Shown in pieces: positions 31,957 through 48,259 of a stretch of 64,000 bases of DNA (position 1 is its first letter; every line of letters starts with the position of its first letter). This DNA is from an uncultured Eubacteriales bacterium. Lineage in GTDB: Bacteria > Bacillota > Clostridia > Oscillospirales > UBA644. Under the pieces are notes generated by a model. The model ran no database searches. It had not been told where the DNA came from and worked only from the letters and a program-made list of their open reading frames with translations. A program made the translations under genes and the position numbers. The stretch is from positions 210 through 64,209 of the forward strand of contig CAUHAO010000003.1 in NCBI GenBank assembly GCA_959604355.1, in the 5' to 3' direction.

Positions 31957-32333
31957 GCACCCCCGTTTGTGTGGTTCCTGTAGCCGTGTTTGTCGCGGTC
32001 GTTCCCTGTCACAGCACTTCACGGCGCAAATATTTCACCGCTGTAATCAAAGAGTGCCGCTCCGCCAAAGCCGGATTGATAACTTGGATTTATTATAACT
32101 CAAAACAACGGAGATTGCAAATGAAGAATATTTTATCATTCGTCCAATGTGTTTTTAATTATGTCTGACACGCGTCTTCTCGTGTTCACAAAACTCCCAG
32201 TGCAAAATCTTTTCAAAATCCTATTGACAAAATCAGGAAAATATGTTATCATATGATAAAAGGAGTCGAGACTCCATTTATTTTGGGCAAATATAATCAC
32301 AAATTTACCAGGACAAATATTTTAGGAGAGCAT

Positions 32334-32954
32334 ATGACAATTGGTGAAGTTGCGGTTGTCCGAACAGGCCTTGTTACCGCAAGAAAAAAGAAAGATGCAT
32401 CTTCCTTGCGATCATTTGATTATCGGCTTTTGAATCTAAAATGTATCGCAAATGAAGGTTATATTGAAAAAGCTTATATTGAACCATACGAATTATCGGA
32501 AGAGTTGAAAGAGGGCTACCTGACTCGGATGGGAGATATTCTTATCAGACTAAGCGCCCCCTATACAGTAGTCATGATTGATCAACCGGATTTGTGCGGA
32601 ATTGTCATCCCCTCCCACTTCGCAATCATTCGTGTTGATAAACGTTACGCAGTGCCAGAATATGTGTTTTGGTCGTTGCGACGTGACAAGAACAGAATAA
32701 CGATGATGCAAAACAGTAGCGGAAGTACTGCTTTTGGGACAATCAGTTCGGGGCTGATCGCCTCGCTGTCGATCACACTTTTACCCATACAAGAGCAGAA
32801 GATAGTTGGTGATCTGATGATTCTTTCGGAGCGCGAGCAAGAGTTAATGCAAATGCTTGCCACAGAAAAGAAAAAATATAACACCCTGCTTTTGAACCAA
32901 ATCTACGATAATATGAAAAGAGGTAATATAAATGACAACCAAACAAAACATTGA
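32334..32954 (+). CDS. hsdS: Type I restriction-modification specificity subunit, half-size (single TRD)
   Basis: 206 aa with one target-recognition domain plus the conserved helical region LLPIQEQKIVGDLMILSEREQELMQML. ATG 32334 follows aggaga. It overlaps hsdM by 23 nt. Confidence 0.75.
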   Translation: MTIGEVAVVRTGLVTARKKKDASSLRSFDYRLLNLKCIANEGYIEKAYIEPYELSEELKEGYLTRMGDILIRLSAPYTVVMIDQPDLCGIVIPSHFAIIRVDKRYAVPEYVFWSLRRDKNRITMMQNSSGSTAFGTISSGLIASLSITLLPIQEQKIVGDLMILSEREQELMQMLATEKKKYNTLLLNQIYDNMKRGNINDNQTKH

Positions 32955-34488
32955 AAAAGTACTTTGGAACGCATGCGACAGCTTCCGCGGAAAAATTGAC
33001 AGCTCACGATATAAGGATTATATCCTTTCAATGCTTTTTGTGAAATATCTGAGCGATGTATACGCATACACTCGCAAGAAATACAGTGAACAGTATGACG
33101 GAAACGAGGAACGTATTGCCCGTGCGATGAGCCGTGAGCGTTTTGTCATGGACGAAACCTCAACCTTTGATTACCTCTACAAAAACAGAAACGATACGGC
33201 TATCGGTGAAAAAATCAATATCGCTCTTGCGAATATTGAAAAAAACAACAGCGCTAAGTTACATAACGTGTTCCGGGCCATTGATTTCAACTCTACCGTT
33301 GATTTCGGTGAGGTTAAAGAGAAGAATGCAATTCTCAAAAATCTTCTCGAGGATTTCAAGGACCTTGACCTCTCCCCGGATCAGCTCGACAATGCAGACA
33401 TCATCGGAGATGCCTACGAATACATGATTGCTAACTTTGCATCCGATGCGGGAAAGAAGGGCGGCGAGTTCTACACCCCAAGTATGGTTTCTGAGCTGGT
33501 TGCAAGATTGATTGCACCTAAAGAAAATGATCGTATCTACGATGCAACCTGCGGAAGCGGCGGTCTTCTTCTCAAAGCGTACAAGCAGGTAAAGAGCCGG
33601 AAAGTGGCGCTTTACGGGCAGGAGCAGAATATGCAGACATGGGCGCTCTGCCGCATGAATATGTTTTTGCACAATGTAGACGACGCAACTATTTGGCAAG
33701 GCGATACGCTTTCCAACCCCGGAAACATCAAGGACGATAAGTTGATGAAATTCCAGTGTATTTGTGCGAACCCACCATTCTCGCTTGACAAATGGGACAG
33801 CGGATTTCTCTCGGGTGCGGTGGACGAAAAAGGCAAGCCCAAGGAAAAGATGTCTGCGGAACTTGATCCGTTCAGGCGCTTCGATTGGGGCATCCCGCCC
33901 ACATCCAAAGGCGATTACGCATTCGTCATGCATATGCTGCACAGCCTGGACGATGCCACGGGACGCATGGGCATCATTCTCCCTCACGGTGTACTCTTCC
34001 GCGGTGCAGGCGAAGGAAAAATTCGCCGCACCATTATCGAGAGCTTTAACTTTCTTGATGCTGTCATCGGGCTTCCCGCAAACCTGTTCTACGGTGCAGG
34101 TATTCCCGCCTGTATTCTGATTTTCCGCAAGGATCGCGGAACGAATAACAAGGTTCTCTTTGTGGATGCAAGTGGCGAAGGACACTATGAAAAAGGCAAG
34201 AATCAGAACATTCTGCGTGAGTGCGATGTTAAGAAGATCGTTGACACCTATGTTCAGTATAAAACCGATATTCATTATGCGGACGAGCCCAAGTTCAGCC
34301 ATGTGGCTACCCTTGAGGAGATCGCCGAAAACGATTACAATCTTAATATCCCACGCTATGTCGATACTTTTGAGGAAGAAGAATTGATCGACATCGACGA
34401 GGTGAAACAGAATATCGCCAACATCGAGGCAGAGCTTGCCGAGGTGCAGGCGCAGATGAAGAAGTATATGGAGGAGCTTGGGTTATGA
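32932..34488 (+). CDS. hsdM: Type I restriction-modification DNA methyltransferase subunit M (N6-adenine)
   Basis: HsdM N-terminal domain (LWNACDSFRG), AdoMet motif YDATCGSGGLL and catalytic NPPF (CANPPFSLDKW). Confidence 0.95.
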   Translation: MTTKQNIEKVLWNACDSFRGKIDSSRYKDYILSMLFVKYLSDVYAYTRKKYSEQYDGNEERIARAMSRERFVMDETSTFDYLYKNRNDTAIGEKINIALANIEKNNSAKLHNVFRAIDFNSTVDFGEVKEKNAILKNLLEDFKDLDLSPDQLDNADIIGDAYEYMIANFASDAGKKGGEFYTPSMVSELVARLIAPKENDRIYDATCGSGGLLLKAYKQVKSRKVALYGQEQNMQTWALCRMNMFLHNVDDATIWQGDTLSNPGNIKDDKLMKFQCICANPPFSLDKWDSGFLSGAVDEKGKPKEKMSAELDPFRRFDWGIPPTSKGDYAFVMHMLHSLDDATGRMGIILPHGVLFRGAGEGKIRRTIIESFNFLDAVIGLPANLFYGAGIPACILIFRKDRGTNNKVLFVDASGEGHYEKGKNQNILRECDVKKIVDTYVQYKTDIHYADEPKFSHVATLEEIAENDYNLNIPRYVDTFEEEELIDIDEVKQNIANIEAELAEVQAQMKKYMEELGL

Positions 34489-35513
34489 GCGAAGGAAAAG
34501 ATTTGACTATCCGAAACAGTACAGCTGAATTTTTGATTTTTGAAAAGCAGGCTCACGCCGATTCCATAGAAGTTCGTTACGAAGACGAAACATTGTGGCT
34601 TACACAAAAAATGATGTCGGATCTTTTTGATGTTGAATCCAACACGATAACTTATCATTTACAAGAGATTTTTAAGTCTGGGGAATTGGATAAAGAATCA
34701 ACTGCTCGAAAATTTCGAGTAGTTCAAACCGAAGGCACTCGTCAAGTCAGTCGAGAAGTTGACCACTACAATCTTGATGCCGTAATTTCTGTTGGATATC
34801 GTGTAAATTCTATTCGCGCAACCCAGTTCAGACGCTGGGCGACACAGGTTTTGAAGCAGTATGCGATCACCGGTTACATAATTGACCGCAAACGTATGGA
34901 AAACGGCGCGTTCCTCGGTGAAGACTATTTTGAGCGTTTGCTGGAAGAAATCCGCGAGATTCGTTTGAGTGAGCGTAGATTTTATCAGAAGGTTACCGAC
35001 ATATATGCAACCAGTGTGGATTACGATAAAAATGCACCGACAACCAAGCTCTTCTTTGCTACCGTTCAGAACAAGATGCATTATGCCATCACGGGCAATA
35101 CAGCTCCGGAATTGATTATGGGGCGTGCTGACAGCAGCAAAGAACATATGGGTCTTACTTCGTGGGAGCGTTCCCCCGACGGCAAGATTCTCAAATCCGA
35201 CGTTTCGGTCGCCAAAAACTATCTTACCAAGGATGAACTTGATTCGCTTGGCAGAATCGTCAACTCCTTCCTCGATGCCGCAGAAGATTTCGCAAAGCGT
35301 AAGATCCCGATGACGATGGAAGACTGGGCAAAACGGCTTGATATGTTCTTGGCGTTTACCGGACGCGATATATTGACCGATGCGGGTACAGTTTCAAAAA
35401 TCGCAGCTAAAGCTTACGCCGAAAGCGAATTTGAAAAATACCGTGTGACACAAGACAAGCTCTATCAGAGTGATTTTGACAAGCTGGTGGAGAAGACGAA
35501 AAAGGAGAAGTAA
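34485..35513 (+). CDS. rhuM: RhuM family virulence/Fic-DOC-associated protein (common insert in type I R-M operons)
   Basis: The sequence IEVRYEDETLWLTQKMMSDLFDVESNTITYHLQEIF...VISVGYRVNSIRATQFRRWATQVLKQY is characteristic of RhuM. ATGA overlap with hsdM. Confidence 0.8.
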   Translation: MSEGKDLTIRNSTAEFLIFEKQAHADSIEVRYEDETLWLTQKMMSDLFDVESNTITYHLQEIFKSGELDKESTARKFRVVQTEGTRQVSREVDHYNLDAVISVGYRVNSIRATQFRRWATQVLKQYAITGYIIDRKRMENGAFLGEDYFERLLEEIREIRLSERRFYQKVTDIYATSVDYDKNAPTTKLFFATVQNKMHYAITGNTAPELIMGRADSSKEHMGLTSWERSPDGKILKSDVSVAKNYLTKDELDSLGRIVNSFLDAAEDFAKRKIPMTMEDWAKRLDMFLAFTGRDILTDAGTVSKIAAKAYAESEFEKYRVTQDKLYQSDFDKLVEKTKKEK

Positions 35514-35514
35514 A

Positions 35515-36105
35515 ATGAACGAAGTTATTTTAGTTATTGTTACAGCATTGATTTCTGGCTTACTTGCTACATTAGTAACAATTTGGTGGCAAAAACGCTC
35601 TGCCATACATAAAAGCAAAATGAAAATATTTGAAACACTAATGGCTTATAGATATCGAATTATTGCAGAGCCAAGTGTACATGCGTTGAACTCTATAGAT
35701 GTTGTTTTCTATAAAGATGATAATGTTAGGCGTGCTTATACTGATTTTTTGAACGAAGCTGCGAAAAGGCCAGAAATGAATCCCAATACCGGTGACAAGC
35801 ATTTGAAACTTCTTGAAGAAATGGCAAAAGCTTTGAACTTAAAGAACATCCATTGGGACGATATTAAGCAAGCTTATTGTCCTAACGGACTTCTGGAAAA
35901 AATCCAAGAAGAAGAGATGTTGAGAAAAATGCAACTGCAAACTACCGCAAACGCTATCGAAGCACAAAAGAATCAGCAGAATACTCCTACTCAAGATCAA
36001 ATTAACCAACAACTAATGTTACAGCTTCTTCCTGAACTAATTAGAAATCCTGACGGATTTAAGAATCTTATGGAGTTAGGAGAGAGGTTTGGTACTAAAA
36101 AATGA
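35515..36105 (+). CDS. Hypothetical N-terminally membrane-anchored protein
   Basis: 196 aa. ATG 35515 follows aaggaga. It has one TM helix (VILVIVTALISGLLATLVTIWW) and then a helical soluble domain. ATGA overlap with the downstream hsdS. Confidence 0.5.
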   Translation: MNEVILVIVTALISGLLATLVTIWWQKRSAIHKSKMKIFETLMAYRYRIIAEPSVHALNSIDVVFYKDDNVRRAYTDFLNEAAKRPEMNPNTGDKHLKLLEEMAKALNLKNIHWDDIKQAYCPNGLLEKIQEEEMLRKMQLQTTANAIEAQKNQQNTPTQDQINQQLMLQLLPELIRNPDGFKNLMELGERFGTKK

Positions 36106-37406
36106 CCCTTCAAGTTAAACAACGAATTGAACAAATCCGGCGGGGCGAGGTGCCGGAGGGATATATCATAATAAAAGATGGAGTGTATCCTTCCGATTGG
36201 ACAATCAAGACAATGAAGCAGTGGATTACACTTGAAGAACGTCCGGTCACATTACAAGATGATGAAGAATATGAATTGGTGACAGTTCGCCGTGCATATG
36301 GAGGAGTAGATTCAAGAGGCATCTACAAGGGAAAAGAAGTGTTAGTCAAAACATACTTCTCAGTAAAAAAGAACGACTTTATTATTTCCAAAAGACAGAT
36401 CGCACATGGAGCATGTGGTCTTGTTCCTGATAGATTGAATGGAGCGGTTGTTTCTAATGAGTATAATGTATTCAAGGCAAAAGAAGGGACAAACATCCAA
36501 TTTTTTAACCTTATGATGCAACTCCCTCATTATAAAAGGCTTTTTTATCTTATGAGTGATGGGGTACATATTGAAAAACTCTTATTCAAAACAAGCGATT
36601 GGATGAAACGAAGTTTGGCCATACCCCCTCTCGCCGAGCAAGAGAAGATTGCCGAGATTTTGCAGACGCAGGACAAGCTGATTGAGCTTCAACAGAAGAA
36701 AATTGAAGAGCTGAAACGGCTCAAAAAAGTGTATCTGTCGAAAATGTTCCCGAAAAAAGGCTGCAATGTCCCCGAAATCCGTTTCCCGGGTTTCACTGAC
36801 CCTTGGGAACAGCGCAAGTTGGGGGAAGTTGTTAGTCAGATAACAACAGGACTTAATCCTCGTGATAATTTCAAACTTAACTCAGGTGGTAATAACTATT
36901 ATGTTACTATTAAAAACTTTGAACACGGAGTCCTGCATTTAGATGACAAATGCGACTTTGTTGATGATGAGGCACTGACTCTAATTCAAGCTCGTAGCGA
37001 CCTAAAAAAAGATGATATTTTATTTACAAGCATAGGGCGTGTGGGAGATTGCTATTTGATTGAAAATACGCCGAAAAATTGGAATATCAATGAGTCAGTA
37101 TTCTCATTACGACCAAATAAAAATATTGTAGAACCTGTATACCTTTTCCATACCATTCACAGTGATATCGTGCTAAATCAAATCCTAAATAATATTACGG
37201 GAAGCACATTTAAAAGTATAAAAATTGGTGACTTAAAAAATGTGATTATTCCTATCCCACCAAAGCAAGAACAAGAGCAAATTGCTAAGCTAATTACTGC
37301 TTTGGAGAGCCTTATCACCCTTCATCAGCGTAAGTTGGATGAAGAACAAAAAAAGAAGAAAGCCCTGATGCAGATTCTGCTGACGGGAATTGTGAGAGTA
37401 AAATAA
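36102..37406 (+). CDS. hsdS: Type I restriction-modification specificity subunit, full length (two TRDs)
   Basis: Two TRDs are separated by the conserved helices PPLAEQEKIAEILQTQDKLIELQQKKIEELKRLKKVYLSKMF and PPKQEQEQIAKLITALESLITLHQRKLDEEQKKKKALMQILLTG. Confidence 0.9.
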   Translation: MTLQVKQRIEQIRRGEVPEGYIIIKDGVYPSDWTIKTMKQWITLEERPVTLQDDEEYELVTVRRAYGGVDSRGIYKGKEVLVKTYFSVKKNDFIISKRQIAHGACGLVPDRLNGAVVSNEYNVFKAKEGTNIQFFNLMMQLPHYKRLFYLMSDGVHIEKLLFKTSDWMKRSLAIPPLAEQEKIAEILQTQDKLIELQQKKIEELKRLKKVYLSKMFPKKGCNVPEIRFPGFTDPWEQRKLGEVVSQITTGLNPRDNFKLNSGGNNYYVTIKNFEHGVLHLDDKCDFVDDEALTLIQARSDLKKDDILFTSIGRVGDCYLIENTPKNWNINESVFSLRPNKNIVEPVYLFHTIHSDIVLNQILNNITGSTFKSIKIGDLKNVIIPIPPKQEQEQIAKLITALESLITLHQRKLDEEQKKKKALMQILLTGIVRVK

Positions 37407-37415
37407 GGAGAAAAA

Positions 37416-38822
37416 ATGAAACTAAGCCACGAATACAAAGCCATCGATTCCAAAGACTGTTTTGACCCCATACTCGTTGCAGATACGGAACTTTTTGTAG
37501 ATCCGTTTTCCGTTTTTGATGAAAGCGACGGCGTATTTGCTAATTCTTTTGACAAAATAATTTCTTTCTTCAATGCTGCATTCAAATTAGCAGCTCAAAC
37601 TCCGGAGCGACATGGTGTGTTATATCGAAAACTCGAATCTATGATGACCTTTCCGGAGGTTAACGAAATTGGTTTGGGATATTCTGGGTCAAACGATGGT
37701 GCAGGCGCATCCACGTGGTTTAGAGATCAAATTATTGAATCTCTATATAAATCCATCGAACGAGGAATGGATTGCTATCGTCATTTCGAGGAAATTGCCA
37801 TTTTTGAAAAAGGAATTGGTTGCGACAGAATAAGCGATATAACCTGTAACATCCTCAAAGAAGAAATTATCTCCTACACTCAGTCAATCTGTGCTCAACT
37901 GGATATTCCCATGATCCCCGTACGAATGAGGCATATTCGTTTTGATTTCAAACATTTGCGTTGGGTAGATGGTGTAGTAGAACTTCCCTATAATAAACAC
38001 AAAAAGAGAGGCATTTTGCTTATACCTGAACGTTTTCTTAATGACCTTCCAACAATTAACCCCGATGATTTCAAAGATTATATTTGGGATTGCAAAAACG
38101 AAACATTAAGAAACGATTTGAATTATAGCATAAAATCAGACATTGACAAAGACGCAATTATGGATATTGCTCGGAGATGTCCGGATTGGGTTAAAGAATA
38201 TGAAGAATACAAGGAATCCCAAGGATTTCAACCCTATGATTTGAAGAAGGATAAGAAAGGGGTATATGCTTGGGCAGGAAAAGAACTAATTGAACATGTG
38301 CAGTCGCACCCTTTTTCCTTCTCGGACGCGGAGACGTTCTCTGAATGTGTGTTTAATATTTGCAAATCGTTTCAGAATTATATAGAAACGGAAAAAGGAT
38401 ATACCCTTCTTTGGAATGATGATAATGACAAACCCAAAGCGGAAGCTGCACTCCAAACACTTTTCTTTGGCTTCATAAAAGCGTATGGGGTGTTTCTTAA
38501 CATTGATATCACTCGTGAAAGCAATGCTGGAAGCGGACCTGTAGATTTCAAGTGTTCCCAAGGTTATCATAAGCGCGTTCTAATAGAAACCAAGCTTGTT
38601 AGCAATTCACGATATTGGAATGGTTTGGAACGGCAATTGCCAAAATATATGCTGGCAGAAGAAATCGACAAAGGCATTTTCATGCTTGTTGCTTTTTCAG
38701 TAGATGAATATAACAAGGGCAACAAATACATATCACAAGTTGGCAACCTAAATTTGCCTTATGCTATTGATACGATGCTAATAGATGCATCTAAAGACAA
38801 GCCAAGTGCATCAAAGTTATAA
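37416..38822 (+). CDS. Hypothetical 468-aa protein with C-terminal PD-(D/E)xK nuclease-like motif
   Basis: Strong RBS aaggaga. The C-terminal segment KAEAALQTLFF...ESNAGSGPVDFKCSQGYHKRVLIETKLVSN fits helix-E / P-x-D / E-x-K. The N-terminal ~330 aa is unrecognised. Confidence 0.6.
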   Translation: MKLSHEYKAIDSKDCFDPILVADTELFVDPFSVFDESDGVFANSFDKIISFFNAAFKLAAQTPERHGVLYRKLESMMTFPEVNEIGLGYSGSNDGAGASTWFRDQIIESLYKSIERGMDCYRHFEEIAIFEKGIGCDRISDITCNILKEEIISYTQSICAQLDIPMIPVRMRHIRFDFKHLRWVDGVVELPYNKHKKRGILLIPERFLNDLPTINPDDFKDYIWDCKNETLRNDLNYSIKSDIDKDAIMDIARRCPDWVKEYEEYKESQGFQPYDLKKDKKGVYAWAGKELIEHVQSHPFSFSDAETFSECVFNICKSFQNYIETEKGYTLLWNDDNDKPKAEAALQTLFFGFIKAYGVFLNIDITRESNAGSGPVDFKCSQGYHKRVLIETKLVSNSRYWNGLERQLPKYMLAEEIDKGIFMLVAFSVDEYNKGNKYISQVGNLNLPYAIDTMLIDASKDKPSASKL

Positions 38823-38838
38823 ATGGAGGTGAAATATT

Positions 38839-39012
38839 ATGGCAACCAATCCCCCGAAGGGAGACGGTCACAGAAACGGCGCTGTAAAAGAGCGTTCACA
38901 GACCTACAATCCCAAGACGCAGACATGGACAAAGCGTGACACAAATACCGGCAGGTTCATGGATGGCAAGAAAGACGGGACACCGTTCAAAGGTGTCCGC
39001 AAGGAAAAATAA
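38839..39012 (+). CDS. Small basic hypothetical protein (57 aa; below the ORF-track cutoff)
   Basis: Hand-translated as MATNPPKGDGHRNGAVKERSQTYNPKTQTWTKRDTNTGRFMDGKKDGTPFKGVRKEK. Excellent RBS ggaggtg 7 nt upstream. A hairpin follows at 39017-39053. Confidence 0.5.
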   Translation: MATNPPKGDGHRNGAVKERSQTYNPKTQTWTKRDTNTGRFMDGKKDGTPFKGVRKEK

Positions 39013-39073
39013 ATCCGCAGACAGCGAGGCGTTTTTCGTCTCGCTATGTCTGCTTTAGATAGGAGGTGTCAAT

Positions 39074-40213
39074 ATGTCAAAAATGACAGTAAAAGAGCAA
39101 GAAGCATATTTGAAAAAGCTAATAGAATATGGCGATAAAATCAAATCTGATAAAAGCCTTGTAGACAGTATTTTAAAAGAACATTTATGTAATGTTCCTC
39201 ACAAGAAGCTGTATAAATTCCGCACTTGCTCAAATCAGAACTTCAAAACATTAGAAGAAAATTGCATATGGATGCCTCCGGCTAATACTTTCAAGGACAC
39301 ATTCGATTGTATAATCAATATCGACTTCAAAAAGAATATGCCGCAAATCGGAACATGGTTGTACGATAATCTTTTGGACTTTTATTTTGTATTTGTCAAA
39401 GACTTTTTTGAAAGTCGTGGGATTCCTTTCCCGTATAATCCTGACGATCTACGGAACTATACTAAAGAATGTGTTAGTCCTTCAGGCAAAATCAAATCGA
39501 CGTCAGAATATGAATTTTTAAAAAAATATGCGCCTGATATAGATTCGGAAGAATATGACAAACAGATTTCCGATATGAGAAAAAAACGCTCACAAGTTGA
39601 ACCACTATTAACTGACCGGGTTAAATCCTTGGTGCCGAAGCTTGTAGATGAAATTCAAAAAGCGCAATCGCATTTGCGTGACACAATGTTGGTGTATTGT
39701 ATGACAGAGCGCTTTGACAATCACAATCTTTGGGAAACATATGCAAACAACTATAGCGGTTTTTGCATTGAATACTGCTTTGATAATTTTGAAGAAAAAG
39801 ATTTTGATATTTATAAAAATCTGATATATCTTCTTCCGATGATCTACAAGAAAAACATCCCTCATTTTGATGTGGTTCCTTTTATCGACATTGCTATGAG
39901 AAAGAGCATACTTCACGAAGACGGGTTAGAGCAAAATCCGGATTTGCTTGTGGCTCTCAATATGCAAGTGTTTTATAAAGACAAAGATTACGAGTCAGAA
40001 CACGAGTGGAGATTTTCGATTGCAAACAAGAATAATTGCAAACAACCATTTCCGTTCGTAAGCGGAATATATGCAGGGAAAGATATCAAAACAAGAAATC
40101 TGCAACGATTAAAAAACATCGCTGGAAAACTTGGCGTTCCGATATACTGTCAAGTACAAAACAAGTCCAACAACGGATATAATTATATTCCGGTCCAGGA
40201 GGTAACTAAATGA
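39074..40213 (+). CDS. DUF2971-like protein
   Basis: LYKFRTCSNQNFKTLEENCIWMPPANTFKDTFD, LWETYANNYSGFCIEY and EHEWRF match the DUF2971 pattern as I remember it. RBS aggagg. ATGA overlap with hsdR. Confidence 0.6.
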   Translation: MSKMTVKEQEAYLKKLIEYGDKIKSDKSLVDSILKEHLCNVPHKKLYKFRTCSNQNFKTLEENCIWMPPANTFKDTFDCIINIDFKKNMPQIGTWLYDNLLDFYFVFVKDFFESRGIPFPYNPDDLRNYTKECVSPSGKIKSTSEYEFLKKYAPDIDSEEYDKQISDMRKKRSQVEPLLTDRVKSLVPKLVDEIQKAQSHLRDTMLVYCMTERFDNHNLWETYANNYSGFCIEYCFDNFEEKDFDIYKNLIYLLPMIYKKNIPHFDVVPFIDIAMRKSILHEDGLEQNPDLLVALNMQVFYKDKDYESEHEWRFSIANKNNCKQPFPFVSGIYAGKDIKTRNLQRLKNIAGKLGVPIYCQVQNKSNNGYNYIPVQEVTK

Positions 40214-43200
40214 GCTACAAATATCAATCAGATTTATATCTTGAAGATAACATCAGCAAATACCCTGCCATAGAGCTTTTATGCAAACTGGGCTATCAAT
40301 ATATTTCTCCCGAGGAGTGTATCAATCAGCGCGGCGGGTTTTATGATGTTATACTGAAAGACATTCTGCGAGCACAGCTTCATAAGTTGAACCAATTTTA
40401 TTACAGCGGCATTACATATAAATTTACAGCAGAAAACGTAGAACGCGCCATTTCTGAGTTGGACGAGCCGCTTACCGACGGTCTTGTGCGTACCAGTGAA
40501 AAGATCTATGATGCTCTGATGCTTGGCAAGAGCTATCCTGAAAAGCTTGTGGACGGAACGACCAAGAGTTTTAACCTGAAATATATTGATTGGGAGCATC
40601 CCGAAAATAATGTATTTCATGTCACCGAGGAATTCTCATGTGACAGTTGGGACAAACAGAAAAATGCTCGTCCGGACATTGTTTTGTTTGTCAACGGTAT
40701 TCCGTTTGCGGTAATCGAGTGCAAAGCACCTACTGTTGACGTGGATCAAGCTGTCGAGCAGATGATTCGTAATCAAGGTAAGCCGTATATTCCTCAGCTC
40801 TTCAAATTTGCCCAAGTTGTGGTTGCGACCAACAAAAATGCCGTCAAGTACGCAACCTGCGGCACAGGAAAGAACTTTTGGTGCATATGGCATGAGCAAT
40901 CTACAGAGTGGCAGAACAAACTGCTTGATCAGTATGTTGTGGGGCGTGAAATAACCGAGCAGGACAGAAATATTGTTTCTCTGCTCGATCCGGATCGTTT
41001 ATTGACTCTCACGAAATACTTTATCCTTTACGATGCCAATATCAAAAAGATCTGCCGTTATCAGCAGTTCTTTGCCGTTGAAGAAATCATCAAGACCATT
41101 CAACAGAACGATCCTGCGGGCAACCGTCAAGGCGGTGTTATCTGGCATACACAAGGGAGCGGCAAGTCCCTGACGATGGTTATGGTGGCAAAGTATATTC
41201 TTATGGAAATGAGCCGCTTTAATCCTCGTGTTGTCATTGTGACAGACCGAAAAGAGCTTGATAAACAGATCGCCAAGACCTTTGCTCATACAAGACTGTC
41301 TCCCGCAAGAGCCACCTCTGGAAAGCATTTGATTGAGCTTGTCAACAGCGGGTCGGTGGATGTGATTACATCGATCATCAACAAGTTCAATACGGTGGAG
41401 AGCAGCGGACTCAAAAACAATTCCAGGGATATCTTCGTTCTGGTTGACGAAAGCCACCGCTCCAATTACGGTTCCTTGTCAACCAAAATGCGCACTGTAT
41501 TTCCAAATGCGTGCTACATCGGATTTACAGGAACACCTTTAATGAAGAGCGAAAAGAACACCATGGAGAAGTTCGGCAGGTTAATCCACAAGTACACAAT
41601 CAAAGACGGTGTGGAAGATCATGCCATTGTCCCTTTGATCTACGAAGGAAAATTTGTGGAACAGAGTGTGGATGAAGCCAATATAGACCTTTGGTTCGAT
41701 CAGGTTACAAAAAGGCTGAATGATGCACAGAAGGTCGACCTTAAAAACAAGTGGAGTACCATCAAACGTCTGACTTCCACAGATGCACGGATCAAGCGCA
41801 TTGCGCTGGATGTGAATCTGCACTTTATTGAAGGCTACAAGAACACCGGATTCAAAGCAATGCTGGCGTGCAATTTCAAAAAGGATGCGGTTCGCTATCA
41901 AAAATGCTTTGAAGAGTTCGGAGATCTTACCACTGCGGTAGTTATTTCTGCTCCCGATATGCGTGAAGGTAGTGAAGAAGTAGACGAAAGCACTGACGAT
42001 ATGGTTGTCGCTTTCTGGAACAAAATGATGGCGCAATACGGCAATGCGGATGATTACGAGGATGCGATCAAAAATAAATTTATTGACGGTGAAATTGACA
42101 TTTTGATTGTGTGTAGTAAACTCCTTACCGGATTTGATGCACCTCGCACACAAGTACTTTATATCGATAAAGAGCTCAAAGAGCACGGATTACTTCAGGC
42201 AATTGCGCGCACAAACCGCCTTTATGAGGGTAAAGATTACGGTTTGATTGTAGACTATCGAGGACTGATTCAAAAGCTTGATTCTGCTATGGAAATCTAT
42301 AGTGGGGCGGGACTTGAAGAATTTGACAGCACCGATATTCAAGGTGTGATTGTCGATGTAATGGTATGCGTGAGCCGTTTGCGGGAAGCATATTCTCATC
42401 TGTGTGATATTTTTACCTCAATCAGGAACAAAGAGGATACGGAGGAAATCGAAGTTTTTCTTGCAGATACCGAAATCCGTGCGAAGTTCTATGATGCACT
42501 TTGTTCTTTCGGACGTGCTCTCAACATGGTGCTGAATTCCGAAAAGGCATATTCTGCATTTACAAAGCAGGAAATCGGCATGTATCAATCAGCATTTATC
42601 TTCTATTCAAAAGTGAGAAGAAGTGTAAAAAAACGTTATGCAGATGTGATCGATAATAAAGAGTATGAGAAGCAGATGCAAAATCTTCTTGATACGCATA
42701 TGTCAGTCGCAGGTATTAAACAAATCACAAATCCGGTTGATATTCTTGACCGTGATGAACTTGAAAAAGAACTGCATGACCTGGGAACCATGCGTTCAAA
42801 AGCAGATGCGATTGTATCTCACATGACTAAGAGCATTAAAGCAAACAGAGATGAAAATCCGGCGTATTACGATAGCTTTTCCAAAAGAATAAAGGATGCT
42901 TTGGAGGAATATAAGAATCGGGTCATCACGGAAGCTGAATATCTTTCCAAGTTAAGATCCATTATGGAAGACTACCGTAAGGGTACTACCAACATTTCCT
43001 ATCCGGAAAAAATCAAGGGAAATGTTCATGCACAGGCATTCTACGGTGTGATTACTGCGATTTTAGATGATGTAATGGATATAAGCGCCAATATTGATGT
43101 TATTTCGGATATCTCAATTCGCGTCACAGATATTATTGATGAACACAATATGGTTGATTGGCAGACAAACAAAGATATTCACAACAAGATTGCTCAAGAC

Positions 43201-43314
43201 ATTGACGATATGTTCTATGACATCGAAAAAGAAAAAGGTATTCATGTTGACTTCGATTCTGTTGATAAGATCATTGAGAATGTGATCACAGTTGCCCTTA
43301 GGAGATTCAAATGA
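40210..43314 (+). CDS. hsdR: Type I restriction endonuclease subunit R
   Basis: N-terminal PD-(D/E)xK (RPDIVLFVNGIPFAVIECK). SF2 motifs are present: HTQGSGKSLTMV, VLVDESHRS, FTGTP and QAIARTNR. Length is 1034 aa. Confidence 0.95.
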   Translation: MSYKYQSDLYLEDNISKYPAIELLCKLGYQYISPEECINQRGGFYDVILKDILRAQLHKLNQFYYSGITYKFTAENVERAISELDEPLTDGLVRTSEKIYDALMLGKSYPEKLVDGTTKSFNLKYIDWEHPENNVFHVTEEFSCDSWDKQKNARPDIVLFVNGIPFAVIECKAPTVDVDQAVEQMIRNQGKPYIPQLFKFAQVVVATNKNAVKYATCGTGKNFWCIWHEQSTEWQNKLLDQYVVGREITEQDRNIVSLLDPDRLLTLTKYFILYDANIKKICRYQQFFAVEEIIKTIQQNDPAGNRQGGVIWHTQGSGKSLTMVMVAKYILMEMSRFNPRVVIVTDRKELDKQIAKTFAHTRLSPARATSGKHLIELVNSGSVDVITSIINKFNTVESSGLKNNSRDIFVLVDESHRSNYGSLSTKMRTVFPNACYIGFTGTPLMKSEKNTMEKFGRLIHKYTIKDGVEDHAIVPLIYEGKFVEQSVDEANIDLWFDQVTKRLNDAQKVDLKNKWSTIKRLTSTDARIKRIALDVNLHFIEGYKNTGFKAMLACNFKKDAVRYQKCFEEFGDLTTAVVISAPDMREGSEEVDESTDDMVVAFWNKMMAQYGNADDYEDAIKNKFIDGEIDILIVCSKLLTGFDAPRTQVLYIDKELKEHGLLQAIARTNRLYEGKDYGLIVDYRGLIQKLDSAMEIYSGAGLEEFDSTDIQGVIVDVMVCVSRLREAYSHLCDIFTSIRNKEDTEEIEVFLADTEIRAKFYDALCSFGRALNMVLNSEKAYSAFTKQEIGMYQSAFIFYSKVRRSVKKRYADVIDNKEYEKQMQNLLDTHMSVAGIKQITNPVDILDRDELEKELHDLGTMRSKADAIVSHMTKSIKANRDENPAYYDSFSKRIKDALEEYKNRVITEAEYLSKLRSIMEDYRKGTTNISYPEKIKGNVHAQAFYGVITAILDDVMDISANIDVISDISIRVTDIIDEHNMVDWQTNKDIHNKIAQDIDDMFYDIEKEKGIHVDFDSVDKIIENVITVALRRFK

Positions 43315-44030
43315 TCAAAGAAATAGTTTTGAACGGGAAACGAATTGAGTATGAGTTGCAAAGAAAAAACGTTAAGAATATCAATTTAAGAATTAAATCA
43401 GATAGAACGGTTTTTGTTTCTGCCAATCCTCGTGTTTCCGAAAAGGTAATCGAAGAGTTTATTGAATCCAAGTCGGAGTACATTCTCAAGGCTCTTGCAC
43501 ATTATGAAGAACTTGCCAAATATGCTCCTAAACCGAAACAATTTGTGGATGGAGAAACATTCAGAATACTTGGTCATGATAGAAGATTGAAGGTTGTTGA
43601 GGCAAAGAAAAACAAAGTGGAATGTGATGAATCGTACATTACATTGACCGTTAAAAACCCGGACGATTACGAACTGAAAAAGAAATTGATTGATAAATGG
43701 TTAATGTCGATCTGCAAGGATACAATTCAATCTTTGTGCGATGCTATTTACCCCAAATTTCAGAAATACGGAGTTGAATATCCGATTATTCGGTATAGGA
43801 ATATGGTTTCTCGTTGGGGAAGTTGCCAGCCAAAACGTTGTGTTTTGACTTTCAATTTTGCTTTGGTTGAAGCACCGATATCGTGCATCGAATATGTTGT
43901 AGTGCATGAGTTTACCCACTTCTTGCAACCGAATCATTCAAAGAAGTTCTATCAGCAGCTTGCTATGTTTATGCCCGACTGGGAGGAGAGAAAGAAGATC
44001 CTTGAAAAAGGAAATGCTTTTGTTGAATGA
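43311..44030 (+). CDS. M48/DUF45 (YgjP-like) zinc metallopeptidase
   Basis: HEFTH zinc motif (VVHEFTHFLQPNHSKKFY). ATGA overlap with hsdR, which is the usual R-M-associated position. Confidence 0.8.
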   Translation: MIKEIVLNGKRIEYELQRKNVKNINLRIKSDRTVFVSANPRVSEKVIEEFIESKSEYILKALAHYEELAKYAPKPKQFVDGETFRILGHDRRLKVVEAKKNKVECDESYITLTVKNPDDYELKKKLIDKWLMSICKDTIQSLCDAIYPKFQKYGVEYPIIRYRNMVSRWGSCQPKRCVLTFNFALVEAPISCIEYVVVHEFTHFLQPNHSKKFYQQLAMFMPDWEERKKILEKGNAFVE

Positions 44031-44991: not shown

Positions 44992-45016
44992 ATGCGCCGA
45001 AAGGCGCATTTTTTGT
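44992..45016 (+). terminator. Rho-independent terminator ending the R-M/cargo transcription unit
   Basis: ATGCGCC-gaaa-GGCGCAT followed by TTTTTTG. Confidence 0.65.
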
Positions 45017-45030
45017 TTTACGGCCGATTT

Positions 45031-45620
45031 TGTAAATAAAAAGTAAACAATGCGGGGAGAGGGGTACATTTTGCCCATTTTTTGTCCTATTAGGTGAGGG
45101 GCAATTTTAAGTCAAGGGGCAAGACCTCATTTTGAGGTCTTGATAGTTATCCACTGAATTCCGGACAGACCCATGGCGCAAATTCCGTTAGAAGGTCAAT
45201 TTCTGTAAATAAATTGTAAATATCGCGCCAAAGACCATCAAAATGGGTGCCTAAACCCCTGTATTTTTTCATATAGGTGAGGAATGTTTTTCAAAAGGGG
45301 GTGCGGTTTTCTTTTTCCTGTGACTATTAAGAGAGAGGACAATTGATGAGATAGGGCTTTTGTAAACAAACGGTAAACATTGTTTGCATCAGGGGGTACA
45401 GAACGTCATTTTTATGGGTATAGGTAGAGGATGTTTTTTCAACGGCACTGATTTGTAAATATGCTGTGAATCTTTTTCAAAACCGCCCCCACAAAACGCC
45501 GTTATTATGGATATAGGTGAGGAATGATTTTCAAAAAGGGGGGGATGCGGTTTTCAAATTCCTGTGGCTATTAGGTGAGAGAACTATTTGCAAAACCGTT
45601 CTTCTGTAAACAAGCAGAGC
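45031..45620 (+). repeat. Iteron field upstream of the AAA-ATPase gene
   Basis: There are five copies of TGTAAAyAnnnnGTrAAyA, at 45031, 45204, 45361, 45454 and 45605. There are four copies of TA(T)TAGGTGAGG-type boxes, at 45087, 45271, 45416 and 45511. Two of these extend to ~75-bp near-identical repeats at 45271-45345 and 45511-45590. Confidence 0.7.
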
Positions 45621-45691
45621 TACATATCGGGAAACGAGGTCACGGGCTCCTTTCCCCAATCAAATATTTTTTCAACGAAAGGAGATTACGA

Positions 45692-46783
45692 ATGCAAAGT
45701 AATCCACACAAGCTCACCGTAATAGACGGTGAAACACTCATGGACAAAAGACTTCCGCCCACGAAGTTTTGCGTCGACACTCTACTGCCCCAAGGGCTCT
45801 GCATCCTTGGCGGTTCACCCAAGGTAGGCAAATCGTGGCTGGTGCTTGACCTATGCGTCCACGTCGCCCAAGGAACGCCTTTGTGGGGGCTTGACGTGAC
45901 GAGGGGAGATGTGCTCTACCTCTGCCTTGAAGACAGCGAGAGGCGGATTCAGGAGCGCCTGAACACCATCACGGATAACGTTCCCGAAGGAATGTATTTC
46001 GCAACCGGATGCACCTCAATTGAGAGCGGAGTCTGCGATTGGCTCCGTCGGTTCAAAGGGCAACACCCGGCACTCTCTCTGGTCGCCATCGACACCTTCC
46101 AGCTCATCCGCACGCCCACTCCCGAGGTTTCCTACGGCGGTGACTACGCCGAACTTCGCGTCCTCAAAGAGCTGGCAGATGAGCTTGGCATCTGCCTTCT
46201 GCTCGTCCACCATCTGCGGAAGATGAACGATAAGGATCCCGTCAACAAGCTCTCGGGTAGCACAGGTATCTCGGGCGCGGTCGATGCCATTTTCGTTCTG
46301 GACAAGAACGAGAGGATAGAACGCCTCGCTACGTTCTACGCCTCGGGGCGTGATATCCGTGACCGAAAGATCCAGCTGGAGCATGACACGGACACCTGCG
46401 TCTGGACACTCATTGCAGACAGCCTGACCATGCCTGAAACATTGCTTCCCGATGAAATGGCATATATGCTCGGTTTCCTTGTGAGATCAACAACTCATGA
46501 ATTCGTCGGTACGAACACCGAACTGGCTCAGCACGTTTCCATCGCGTTAGGGAAAGAGGTCAACCCCAAGGGACTCAAGCAAATGATGAACCGCTACCGT
46601 TATCGGCTGGAAGACCTCGGTGTCTTCTTTGAGAGCAAGCGGAGCAACGGACAGAAGTACGTTGTGGTCAAATACCGTCCTCCCTCTGACGGTGACTCAA
46701 GTGCCTCAAGTGACTCTGTTTCTTCTGCTCTCACAGATTCCGTCCCTTTCGTCCCTTGCGTTCCTGCGGAGGATTTGGGATGA
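45692..46783 (+). CDS. AAA family ATPase (RepA/AAA_25-like, replication or transfer helper)
   Basis: ATG 45692 follows aaggaga; the track ORF starts at GTG 45575 inside the repeats. Walker A is GGSPKVGKSW, with Walker B-like LVAIDTFQ and LLLVHHLRK. Confidence 0.75.
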   Translation: MQSNPHKLTVIDGETLMDKRLPPTKFCVDTLLPQGLCILGGSPKVGKSWLVLDLCVHVAQGTPLWGLDVTRGDVLYLCLEDSERRIQERLNTITDNVPEGMYFATGCTSIESGVCDWLRRFKGQHPALSLVAIDTFQLIRTPTPEVSYGGDYAELRVLKELADELGICLLLVHHLRKMNDKDPVNKLSGSTGISGAVDAIFVLDKNERIERLATFYASGRDIRDRKIQLEHDTDTCVWTLIADSLTMPETLLPDEMAYMLGFLVRSTTHEFVGTNTELAQHVSIALGKEVNPKGLKQMMNRYRYRLEDLGVFFESKRSNGQKYVVVKYRPPSDGDSSASSDSVSSALTDSVPFVPCVPAEDLG

Positions 46784-46803
46784 AGACGCTTTATGACGAG
46801 TTT

Positions 46804-46981
46804 CGCCTTTGTATTACGACCGCCCATTTGGGCGGCCGCAAAGGCGTCGGGCTAAGCCCATACCCCTACGCCGTAGGCGTAACTTCTTTCGCTTTCGAAA
46901 GAAATATCACGACGGTGTTCTCACCGTCATATCACGTTGCCGCAGGGCAACATATCACATCTCGCTCGCGAGATATATCAC
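46804..46981 (+). promoter_or_regulatory. Candidate oriT: array of hairpins punctuated by four ATATCAC heptamers
   Basis: A nested hairpin CGCCTTTG..CCGCCC-attt-GGGCGG..CAAAGGCG comes first. It is followed by palindromes GGGCTaAGCCC, CCTACGcCGTAGG and CTTTCGAAAG. After these, ATATCAC (46904) is followed by the hairpin GACGGTG/CACCGTC, ATATCAC (46929) by GTTGCC/GGCAAC, ATATCAC (46952) by ATCTCGC/GCGAGAT, and a final ATATCAC lies at 46975. The array sits immediately upstream of mobC-relaxase. Confidence 0.5.
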
Positions 46982-47003
46982 TCTTATCAGAAAGGACTTT
47001 AGA

Positions 47004-47321
47004 ATGAATAAACAAAACAAAGATTATTTCATTTCTTTTCGCGTGACTGCTGAAGAAAAGAAGTGGATCGAAGAACATTCCTACGGCAATTACCGCCTCA
47101 TCAGCGACTTCGTTCGGGACTGTGTTTTCAAAAAAGAAATGATCATCATCACAGGTGCGGGCGATGTGGCAACCGAACTTCGCCGTATCGGAAATAACGT
47201 AAACCAGCTCACGCGAGCCGTCAACGCGGGATTTGTTTCGCAGATCAATCTGACAGAGACGAGAAAGGAGCTTGAAAATATATGGCAATCGTTAAATTCG
47301 TTGCTTCGAGTTGCCCGATGA
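47004..47321 (+). CDS. mobC: Plasmid mobilization relaxosome protein MobC
   Basis: DYFISFRVTAEEKKWIEEH...ELRRIGNNVNQLTRAVN is the MobC ribbon-helix-helix + conserved GNNLNQ-type motif. ATG 47004; the track ORF is over-extended to 46809. Confidence 0.7.
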   Translation: MNKQNKDYFISFRVTAEEKKWIEEHSYGNYRLISDFVRDCVFKKEMIIITGAGDVATELRRIGNNVNQLTRAVNAGFVSQINLTETRKELENIWQSLNSLLRVAR

Positions 47322-48259
47322 ACAATATTTTTCCCTACGTGATGAACCGGGAAAAGACCGATGAAAATCTGATTTCGGGCATCAACTGCTCCCCCGATAC
47401 GGTGCTTCAGGAATTCACGTTTGTGAAAAAGCAATTCAAAAAAGAGGACGGAAGGACATACGTTCACATCGTACAAGCCTTCAGTCCCGACGATGATCTA
47501 ACCCCCGAGGTTGCTCACGAGATCGGTCTGCGCTTTGCTGAATACTTCCCCGGCTATCAGATCCTGATCGCCACACACAGAGATCACGCCCACCTCCACA
47601 ACCATCTCATACTCAACTCGGTGAACATGGAAACGGGAAAGAAATTTCATCAGAGTGCCGCCGAGATGCGGCAGGTCAAGGAGTATTCCAACAGGCTCTG
47701 CCGGGAGTACGGACTGTCCGAAACCGAAATGAAATCTGCCTTTGGGGCAATGCCGAAGTGGAAGGATCTGCTTCGCCGAAAGGCATATTCCGTCGCCAAC
47801 AACACCTGCTGCAAGGAAGATTTTATCTACGAAATGGAGATGCACGGCTACAAGGTTGACTGGAAAGATAACCATAAGTATATCACCTTCACCACGCCCG
47901 ACGGTCATAAATGCCGTGACAATAAGCTCTTTGCCGAGCAGCTTCTGCGAAAAAATCTGGAGATTTATTTCGCTCTCGGCGGTTGTGAATCGGGACTTGC
48001 GGATCAATACAAGTCGTATGTGAATGATCTCCGACCCGAACACGCCTACACAGTTGGCGACGGACTTTTCAATCTTTTGAAAAATCTGCTCGAAACCATG
48101 CCCTACGATGGACTCTTCACACCGCCTGTTGAAGAACATCAGCTCGACAAAATGACCGTGATGATGCTGGAAATGATGGGCATCAAGGTCGAACCCAAGG
48201 CGCTTTTACAGTACAGCGCAAACAACGAACGTGAAAACGAATACGGACTTTATATGTAA
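47282..48259 (+). CDS. Relaxase/mobilization nuclease (MobA/VirD2 family)
   Basis: The N-terminus MAIVKFVASS...YV, then YVHIVQAFSP and the histidine triad HRDHAHLHNHLILNSV. Confidence 0.85.
   Translation: MAIVKFVASSCPMNNIFPYVMNREKTDENLISGINCSPDTVLQEFTFVKKQFKKEDGRTYVHIVQAFSPDDDLTPEVAHEIGLRFAEYFPGYQILIATHRDHAHLHNHLILNSVNMETGKKFHQSAAEMRQVKEYSNRLCREYGLSETEMKSAFGAMPKWKDLLRRKAYSVANNTCCKEDFIYEMEMHGYKVDWKDNHKYITFTTPDGHKCRDNKLFAEQLLRKNLEIYFALGGCESGLADQYKSYVNDLRPEHAYTVGDGLFNLLKNLLETMPYDGLFTPPVEEHQLDKMTVMMLEMMGIKVEPKALLQYSANNERENEYGLYM

Follow-up and report, generated by a model that had tools for sequence, protein, structure and literature searches.

A two-domain DUF8370-DUF8371 gene in a type I restriction-modification operon is a member of a widespread candidate defence family

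The gene and its family

The window analysed here, a 64,000-nt stretch of contig CAUHAO010000003.1 from an uncultured Eubacteriales bacterium, carries a type I restriction-modification (R-M) operon in which a gene for a two-domain DUF8370+DUF8371 protein of 468 amino acids (aa; P0001, coding sequence 37416..38822, + strand, ATG start) lies between hsdS and hsdR. hsdS (36102..37406, with a Methylase_S domain) ends in a TAA stop at 37404-37406, leaving an intergenic gap of 9 nt before the ATG of the 468-aa gene at 37416, and the Shine-Dalgarno sequence of the latter, AAGGAGA at 37405..37411 (+) as read from the letters, shares bases with this stop. An earlier note on the same DNA had proposed a 468-aa protein with its own strong ribosome-binding site (RBS) and a nuclease-like C-terminus. 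Indeed, the open reading frame (ORF) is real, the RBS is present, and the C-terminal stretch quoted there (KPKAEAALQ...SNSRYW) corresponds to residues 339-401. The gene was correctly placed between hsdS and hsdR, but it is not the sole insert, as the interval holds three ORFs: the 468-aa gene, a 57-aa ORF (38839-39012) and a DUF2971 protein gene (39074-40213).

The 468-aa gene belongs, as an ordinary member, to a candidate defence family that is widespread and already catalogued. A word-index search among 5.8 billion proteins returned 464 full-length relatives of ~468-480 aa, all with precomputed matches to both PF28123 (DUF8370) and PF28130 (DUF8371), and the two models occur on homologues from 95% identity to the query downwards. 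The assignment of the 468-aa protein rests on these precomputed matches of its homologues, since the Pfam set that was scanned directly contained neither model; Pfam and NCBIfam scans of the protein gave nothing significant. DUF8370 is the N-terminal and DUF8371 the C-terminal domain, because a 457-aa variant (P0250) without the nuclease-like part has DUF8370 alone. Furthermore, PHROG 30194 matches the whole protein (E = 7e-55) and the PADLOC model PDC-M36A (PDLC04597) matches aa 18-269 (E = 2.7e-32), so that the earlier view of the N-terminal ~330 aa as matching nothing has to be abandoned.

A nuclease-like C-terminal domain and an invariant N-terminal core

The C-terminal PD-(D/E)xK-like domain (DUF8371; aa ~335-468; 38418..38819, +) was delimited by motifs, conservation and predicted topology. 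In 36 homologues of 39-82% identity, residues E343, Q347, D364, E368, G372, G374, V376, D377, F378, E391, K393, Q407 and Y411 are invariant, in the motif order E / D / ExK / QxxxY (codons E343 38442-38444, D377 38544-38546, E391 38586-38588, K393 38592-38594, Q407 38634-38636 and Y411 38646-38648). The D / ExK pattern recognised in the earlier note is thus no product of chance, the residues D377, E391 and K393 all being among those invariant. At the 50% identity level, the strict D-E-K triad (D377, E391, K393) is kept in 71 of 83 representatives of normal length; across 103 representatives, extended ones included, D377 is found in 74, E391 in 81 and K393 in 92. The protein ends in S-A-S-K-L-COOH (38805..38819, +), a tail conserved in homologues and, as (P)S-A-S-(K/R)-L-COOH, invariant in canonical members.

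The AlphaFold2 (AF2) full-length model has a predicted local distance difference test score of 85.3 and a predicted template modelling score of 0.83. DSSP assigns to its C-domain helices at 343-361, 400-414 and 429-443 and strands at 364-368, 377-382, 386-394, 419-426 and 450-457, and a model of the domain alone reproduces this order, an alpha-beta-beta-beta-alpha-beta core followed by alpha-beta. D377 opens beta2, E391-x-K393 lies within beta3, and QxxxY falls in the next helix. P-V-D, read in the earlier note as the end of a strand, starts one in the model (beta2, 377-382).

Fold comparisons gave weak matches (E 0.02-0.05). For the full model, the best-probability local matches in Foldseek are EndoMS, African swine fever virus RPB5, EcoT38I, MUS81 and PspGI; for the C-domain model, matches in the PDB are the RPB5 jaw, XisH (2inb/2okf), the Cap4 nuclease, EndoMS and MUS81 (template modelling (TM) scores 0.35-0.46), and five of the top six are restriction-endonuclease-fold proteins. 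Matches in BFVD, to DUF2726 and 'restriction endonuclease' entries, are likewise weak. No significant match to a curated PD-(D/E)xK family was found, only subthreshold Pfam matches of single members to four restriction-endonuclease-fold families (SduA_C, E = 0.0039; PDDEXK_9, 0.03; NucS_C, 0.12; and DUF2887), and PDB sequence searches gave nothing below E = 0.1, whether the query was the protein itself or a profile of its C-domain or full length; matches to SLFN12 and phiKZ087 in these searches were at noise level and were discarded. The RecB-family nuclease of HsdR has the same motif order and nearly equal spacing, with D-14-ExK-14-QxxxY here versus D-14-ExK-17-QxxxY in the HsdR of these loci. 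We claim a resemblance to this family and not membership in it, because hhalign did not link the C-domain to the aligned nuclease domains of six HsdR proteins (probability 0.3%). Judged by its motifs, their conservation and the predicted topology, the C-domain very probably adopts the restriction-endonuclease fold, with a helix and a beta-beta-beta-alpha-beta-alpha-beta core as the nuclease proposal would have it, and DUF8371 is predicted to have metal-dependent nuclease activity.

The N-terminal domain (DUF8370/PF28123; aa 1-~330; 37416..38405, +), as delimited by the AF2 model, conservation and the PDC-M36A match, is predicted to consist mainly of helices, together with a single beta-hairpin (167-190) and a glycine-rich loop (91-97) modelled at low confidence. 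Searches of the PDB and BFVD returned no relative of it by sequence or by fold. Residues D23, D29, E81, E84, E125, D137, S140, D141, T155, Y274 and D279 are near-invariant: among the 103 representatives, D137 and D141 are present in 103, T155, Y274 and D279 in 102, D23 in 101, D29 and E81 in 100, and S140 in 98. The N-domain, not the nuclease, is therefore the invariant core of the family, a point added by the present analysis. Such acidic and polar residues, held constant across phyla, suggest catalysis or a binding site for some universal ligand, be it a metal, a nucleotide or nucleic acid, more than they suggest a protein sensor that evolves fast; the domain may act as the sensor or regulator of the protein. 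An exhaustive phmmer search with residues 1-330 gave 1,447 clusters at 50% identity. Among the matches listed, which are the stronger ones (1,297 weaker ones of the 1,447 clusters fall outside), the N- and C-domains occur together in essentially all complete proteins, and the exceptions are mainly short fragments.

Effector swapping, distribution and genomic setting

Some family members carry additional C-terminal domains. A Pfam scan of ten proteins, nine with a C-terminal extension plus P0250, found TIR_2 in four, EAD1+CHAT in one and PNP_UDP_1 in one, and these TIR, CHAT and PNP extensions are typical cell-directed immune effectors. In an independent MAFFT alignment, the fusion proteins lack D377 and/or E391/K393 (reading, for example, INF...IKLQ or IIF...IEVR) and keep all N-domain invariants. 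The strict triad is present in 2 of 16 representatives whose extension exceeds 60 aa versus 71 of 83 without one (Fisher p = 2.3e-8). The C-terminal tail co-varies with the triad, [ST]A[ST] being found in 52 of 73 triad-intact versus 1 of 26 triad-lost representatives (p = 7e-10). Since the triad is lost where TIR, CHAT or PNP is added, replacement of one effector by another is the simplest reading, in which the nuclease would be the output of the ~470-aa form and DUF8370 the constant module.

DUF8370 also occurs by itself. A PDC-M36A scan of 401 genomes of the phylum gave five matches. Three of them, 318-351 aa long and encoded by near-complete genomes, have DUF8370 alone (DUF8370-only proteins). 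Two unrelated genomes share a split system (L098, 5395-8237, -; L099, 3260-6321, +) composed of an AAA_21/AAA_15 ATPase, a ~100-aa ORF and a DUF8370-only gene. The ATPases (454-507 aa) are homologous between the two loci (38% identity, E = 1e-93), as are the DUF8370-only proteins (34% identity, E = 1e-59); the ~100-aa ORFs show no mutual similarity. DUF8370 can thus work without a fused nuclease, as the existence of DUF8370-only proteins beside ATPases indicates. The triad-loss statistic, the co-varying tail and these split systems are, like the invariant core, contributions of the present analysis. As a separate observation, locus L100 (1668-5966, +) holds a 505-aa TIR_2 + Mrr_cat protein with a PDDEXK_9-like C-terminal region (a weak match), to which the C-half of the PDC-M36A profile aligns. 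The gene directly upstream encodes an 890-aa SMC_N/AAA_23 ATPase, and the pair looks like a further two-gene defence candidate.

The distribution of the family is that of an accessory, mobile gene. Of 41 related genomes, which cover 15 other species of the genus, only the one analysed here has the 468-aa gene; the other 40 lack it. Among 185,579 species genomes scanned, relatives numbered 159 and came from Bacillota, Bacteroidota, Actinomycetota, Acidobacteriota, Chloroflexota, Cyanobacteria, Pseudomonadota, Candidate Phyla Radiation (CPR) bacteria and archaea. The family is also carried by 32 plasmid records, conjugative ones included, in every one of which it is annotated 'hypothetical protein'; despite the PHROG match, a tblastn search against 50,697 phage genomes gave no family match. 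The nonsynonymous divergence to relatives is 0.10-0.32, consistent with purifying selection; the synonymous divergence is saturated.

Neighbours were clustered over four genes on either side in 80 non-redundant loci. The 586 neighbours fell into 529 clusters, and no universal partner gene was found across these loci. HsdM recurs as a neighbour in 7 loci and HsdR in 6. In seven actinobacterial loci (for example L050, 8717-9943, +), a ~406-aa fused HTH_3 + Peptidase_M78 protein (IrrE/CapP-like and CapH/CapP-like), which matches the PADLOC RmrA and capP models, lies directly upstream and suggests damage- or infection-responsive transcriptional control of the homologue in that lineage. Further neighbours are OLD/PtuA/AriA-type ATPases, MmeI/Eco57I-type enzymes, TIR proteins, integrases and UvrD helicases, and toxin-antitoxin genes are also found beside family members. 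In 76 loci, 138 adjacent proteins matched 527 PADLOC models versus 111 matched by 140 proteins more than 7 kb away, a crude comparison, as it tallies models and not proteins, of which the direction is clear. The immediate neighbourhoods are defence-rich, in line with the defence-island enrichment expected of a candidate defence gene.

The link to type I R-M recurs across the family. In relatives of 72-73% identity the gene likewise lies between hsdS and hsdR. Elsewhere, a homologue stands upstream of hsdR-M-S (L024), directly after hsdR (L071) or next to an MmeI-like enzyme (L082), and on a Paenarthrobacter plasmid it is the overlapping last gene of a methyltransferase-helicase-GIY-YIG operon. 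In an Ignavibacteriales locus (L037, 4662-15282, +) the homologue lies downstream of R and M genes (HsdR-like and a fused 836-aa methylase) and is followed by a Gabija-like pair, an OLD-type AAA_15+TOPRIM protein and a UvrD helicase, all co-directional. A relative of 82% identity resides in an AbiH/Abi_2/UvrD island without R-M. Because of this relative, and because HsdM is near in 7 of 80 loci, we consider the linkage recurrent (~9% of loci) but facultative.

The host operon of the 468-aa gene (32253..44030, +) comprises a half-size hsdS-like gene, hsdM, RhuM (PDC-S05), DUF6680, hsdS, the 468-aa gene, the 57-aa ORF, DUF2971 (PDC-S31), hsdR (40210..43314) and a YgjP-like peptidase gene, every gene in the same direction and each separated from the next by a short gap or overlapping it. 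The operon is preceded by a promoter-like site (32224-32252), and no strong or convincing terminator on the + strand was found in the operon region upstream of 44992-45009. The fractional G+C content of the 468-aa gene is 0.37-0.40 versus 0.42-0.48 for hsdM and hsdR. The first gene (32253-32954, +; 233 aa), which has no Pfam match, aligns over 89 aa (30%, E = 7e-6) to the conserved C-terminal region of the full-length HsdS, as would fit a specificity subunit of half size; its start may be further downstream, because the best promoter-like site ends at 32252 and abuts the ATG. The RhuM-family gene (34485-35513, +), embedded between hsdM and hsdS, matches PDC-S05 (E = 6e-156), of which one member is reported in a preprint (10.1101/2024.09.26.614923) to protect E. 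coli from T4, T5 and T7. Its end overlaps by 44 nt the gene for a DUF6680 protein with an N-terminal hydrophobic segment (35470-36105, +). The DUF2971 protein (379 aa; 39074..40213, +) matches PDC-S31 (E = 2e-29). With RhuM/PDC-S05, DUF2971/PDC-S31 and the 468-aa gene, the operon therefore holds no fewer than three distinct defence candidates in addition to its R-M genes.

The 57-aa ORF (38839-39012, +) is lysine/glycine-rich, begins MATNPPKGDGHRNGAVKERSQ, has its own strong RBS (GGAGGTG) and gave no Pfam match. It is missing from two of the 72-73% identical operons (L004 and L007), where the genes that flank it here are 13-16 nt apart. We take neither this ORF nor the DUF2971 gene for a dedicated partner of the 468-aa gene, as no partner is conserved among the 80 loci and the co-occurrence of DUF2971 with the family is confined to its closest relatives. 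Directly 3' of the operon lies a mobilisation module (45575-48259, +) with genes for an AAA_25/DnaB-like ATPase, an accessory protein (NikA/MobC) and a relaxase (MobA/VirD2), and the related operon L004 has a Mob_Pre relaxase at the equivalent place. The R-M cassette probably travels on or beside a mobilisable element. The operon is a compact multi-defence cassette beside a mobilisation module and fits the published 'guilt-by-embedding' picture.

Interpretation and relation to known systems

Defence systems are often nested inside Hma, BREX, DISARM and type I R-M systems, and genes lying in this way within BREX, DISARM and type I R-M supplied 145 'PDC' candidates (Payne et al., 2024, bioRxiv 10.1101/2024.01.29.577857). 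Both the family and the pattern of embedding in R-M are thus already published and are not a new discovery. The novel R-M-linked defence nuclease of the earlier note finds support as a reading, with the corrections that the family had been catalogued and that the R-M link is facultative.

Anti-phage defence is the most likely function of the 468-aa gene. We think it rather probable that the protein is a self-contained, mobile, single-protein defence factor in which a DUF8371 nuclease effector is controlled by, or co-catalyses with, the DUF8370 core. In such a scheme, DUF8371 would be an active restriction-endonuclease-fold nuclease (PD-(D/E)xK, RecB-like motif order) serving as the killing or cutting effector, and DUF8370 would be the constant, indispensable core built on the invariant acidic and polar residues and the glycine-rich loop. 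DUF8370 would most likely bind a metal, nucleotide or nucleic-acid cue and control the effector or co-catalyse with it, so that entry of a phage or plasmid would activate the protein and lead to DNA cleavage. The place in the type I R-M operon would then be 'embedding', that is, co-transfer and co-expression with another defence system with no obligatory partnership. As a tentative extension, less probable than the scheme itself, DUF8370 could be a new-fold autonomous catalytic or ligand-binding switch of a modular immune family, wired to the nuclease with its S-A-S-K-L tail, to TIR, CHAT or PNP where the nuclease decayed, or to a separate ABC-type ATPase; in R-M operons it could provide a second layer that acts when restriction is bypassed.

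Several observations weigh against the single-protein nuclease scheme. TM-scores to restriction-endonuclease-fold proteins are only 0.35-0.46, Foldseek gave no match at E <= 0.001 for the full model against the PDB and BFVD or for the C-domain against the PDB, and the comparison with HsdR nuclease domains was negative. Twelve of the 83 members of normal length lack the triad, the N-domain is conserved more strongly than the triad across the 103 representatives, and DUF8370-only proteins are paired with ABC-type ATPases. The near-versus-far comparison of PADLOC models is crude. A search of the literature for DUF8370, DUF8371, PF28123, PF28130 and PDC-M36 found no papers, and among the published candidates only the Hma-embedded (HEC) systems were tested, the PDC candidates not individually (10.1101/2024.01.29.577857).

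The strong N-domain conservation, the ATPase-paired DUF8370-only proteins and the triad-less members fit an enzymatic or effector N-domain at least equally well. DUF8370 could itself drive catalysis, as a metal-dependent enzyme of new fold whose substrate is nucleic acid or nucleotides, with PD-(D/E)xK as an accessory DNA-binding or second catalytic module; the protein would still serve defence. This alternative, which we consider unlikely overall, is kept alive by the DUF8370-only proteins. D137 and D141 are present in all 103 representatives and D23, D29, E81, T155, Y274 and D279 in at least 100, compared with only 74 for D377, and the N-domain invariants persist in every fusion and triad-lost member. 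Furthermore, in the two genomes with split systems the DUF8370-only proteins (318-351 aa) lie downstream of homologous AAA_21/AAA_15 ATPases, and in ATPase-partner systems such as PARIS and Septu the effector usually occupies the position downstream of the ATPase. However, the searches run here gave no fold or sequence similarity of DUF8370 to any known enzyme, and the loss of the triad just where TIR, CHAT or PNP was added is most simply explained by replacement of an effector; by implication, the nuclease has this role in the 468-aa form.

The genomic setting raises other possibilities, all of which we regard as improbable. A type IV-like, modification-dependent restriction endonuclease, in which recognition of a modified base or backbone in invading DNA by the N-domain would confine cleavage by the nuclease to that DNA, with no abortive infection, would complement an R-M system that targets unmodified DNA; a recognition domain followed by a C-terminal PD-(D/E)xK domain parallels Mrr-/GmrSD-like enzymes, which are often embedded in type I R-M (bioRxiv 10.1101/2024.01.29.577857), and one homologue carries the annotation 'Restriction endonuclease'. 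We give this little credence, as the TIR, CHAT and PNP fusions point to an abortive logic and neither the Pfam scan nor Foldseek found similarity to SRA, YTH, winged-helix or DUF262 readers. It is still less probable that the protein is a PrrC-like guard, kept latent by HsdMSR and released when an anti-restriction protein of the Ocr, ArdA or Stp type blocks restriction. PrrC provides a precedent (bioRxiv 10.1101/2024.01.29.577857), and co-directional embedding between hsdS and hsdR, here and in the 72-73% identical relatives, together with the independent cases of adjoining R-M genes in remote lineages (L024, L037, L071, L082 and the Paenarthrobacter plasmid operon), would suit such a role; yet type I genes lie within four genes in only ~7 of 80 loci, no R-M lies near the relative of 82% identity, the closest one outside the operon, the position relative to the hsd genes varies, and library scans found no ABC-ATPase or anticodon-nuclease domain in the 468-aa protein. 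We find it hardest of all to believe that the family does not serve defence and is a mobile-element maintenance or DNA-processing nuclease (for recombination or repair, or an addiction toxin) hitch-hiking in variable regions. The gene does adjoin a mobilisation module (AAA_25, NikA/MobC, MobA relaxase), and relatives occur on plasmids, conjugative ones included, and beside integrases and toxin-antitoxin genes. Against this, the 80 loci show no conserved tie to any mobile-element gene, the family is missing from the 50,697 phage genomes, and immune-type effector fusions, CapH/CapP-like regulators upstream in 6-7 actinobacterial loci and R-M embedding are hallmarks of defence.

Should the family protect against phages, it would be a widespread one-protein defence system, with its 1,447 clusters at 50% identity across many bacterial phyla, CPR bacteria and archaea, built on a domain without a known structural relative. 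It would also show, as a clean experiment of nature, how effectors (nuclease, TIR, CHAT, PNP) are exchanged while one module stays constant. The 468-aa gene is a good cloning target and introduces no new concept.

Among catalogued families, the 468-aa protein does not differ from the Pfam DUF8370+DUF8371 family, to which it belongs and which has candidate status only. PDC-M36 is close to it. The 468-aa gene is embedded in type I R-M, as in the definition of that candidate set, and the C-half of the PDC-M36A profile matches the PDDEXK_9-like region of the L100 protein, so that PDC-M36A probably has an equivalent N-domain and nuclease architecture from a diverged branch. However, the alignment of the 468-aa protein covers only profile positions 26-264 of 457, short of a full-length match, with the same limit in 10 diverse relatives. 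PDC-M36 was described as a three-gene cassette, FAM_01399>>FAM_00303>>FAM_00303 (10.1101/2024.01.29.577857), and the family has no conserved neighbour in the 80 loci. Since the N-terminal half of the A model alone matches and a partner is lacking, we regard the family as a sister of PDC-M36 and not a member.

Shedu and PrrC are the closest functional analogies, and the 468-aa protein belongs to neither family. Like Shedu (SduA), it is a single protein with a C-terminal nuclease of the restriction-endonuclease fold (predicted here) and an N-terminal domain thought to control it, and Shedu offers a working model of the action of such proteins. However, its nuclease is not DUF4263/SduA_C, which 1 of 14 members matches at E = 0.0039, below threshold, and the PADLOC Shedu model does not match the 468-aa protein; moreover, the constant part here is the N-domain and the effector varies, the reverse of Shedu with its variable N-domain. 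PrrC/RloC (EcoprrI) shares with the 468-aa gene a place between the hsd genes of a type I operon and provides a precedent for embedded second-line defence; it differs in its ABC-ATPase N-domain and anticodon-nuclease C-domain, both absent from the 468-aa protein, and in being confined almost wholly to type I R-M, whereas the family of the 468-aa protein lies mostly outside R-M.

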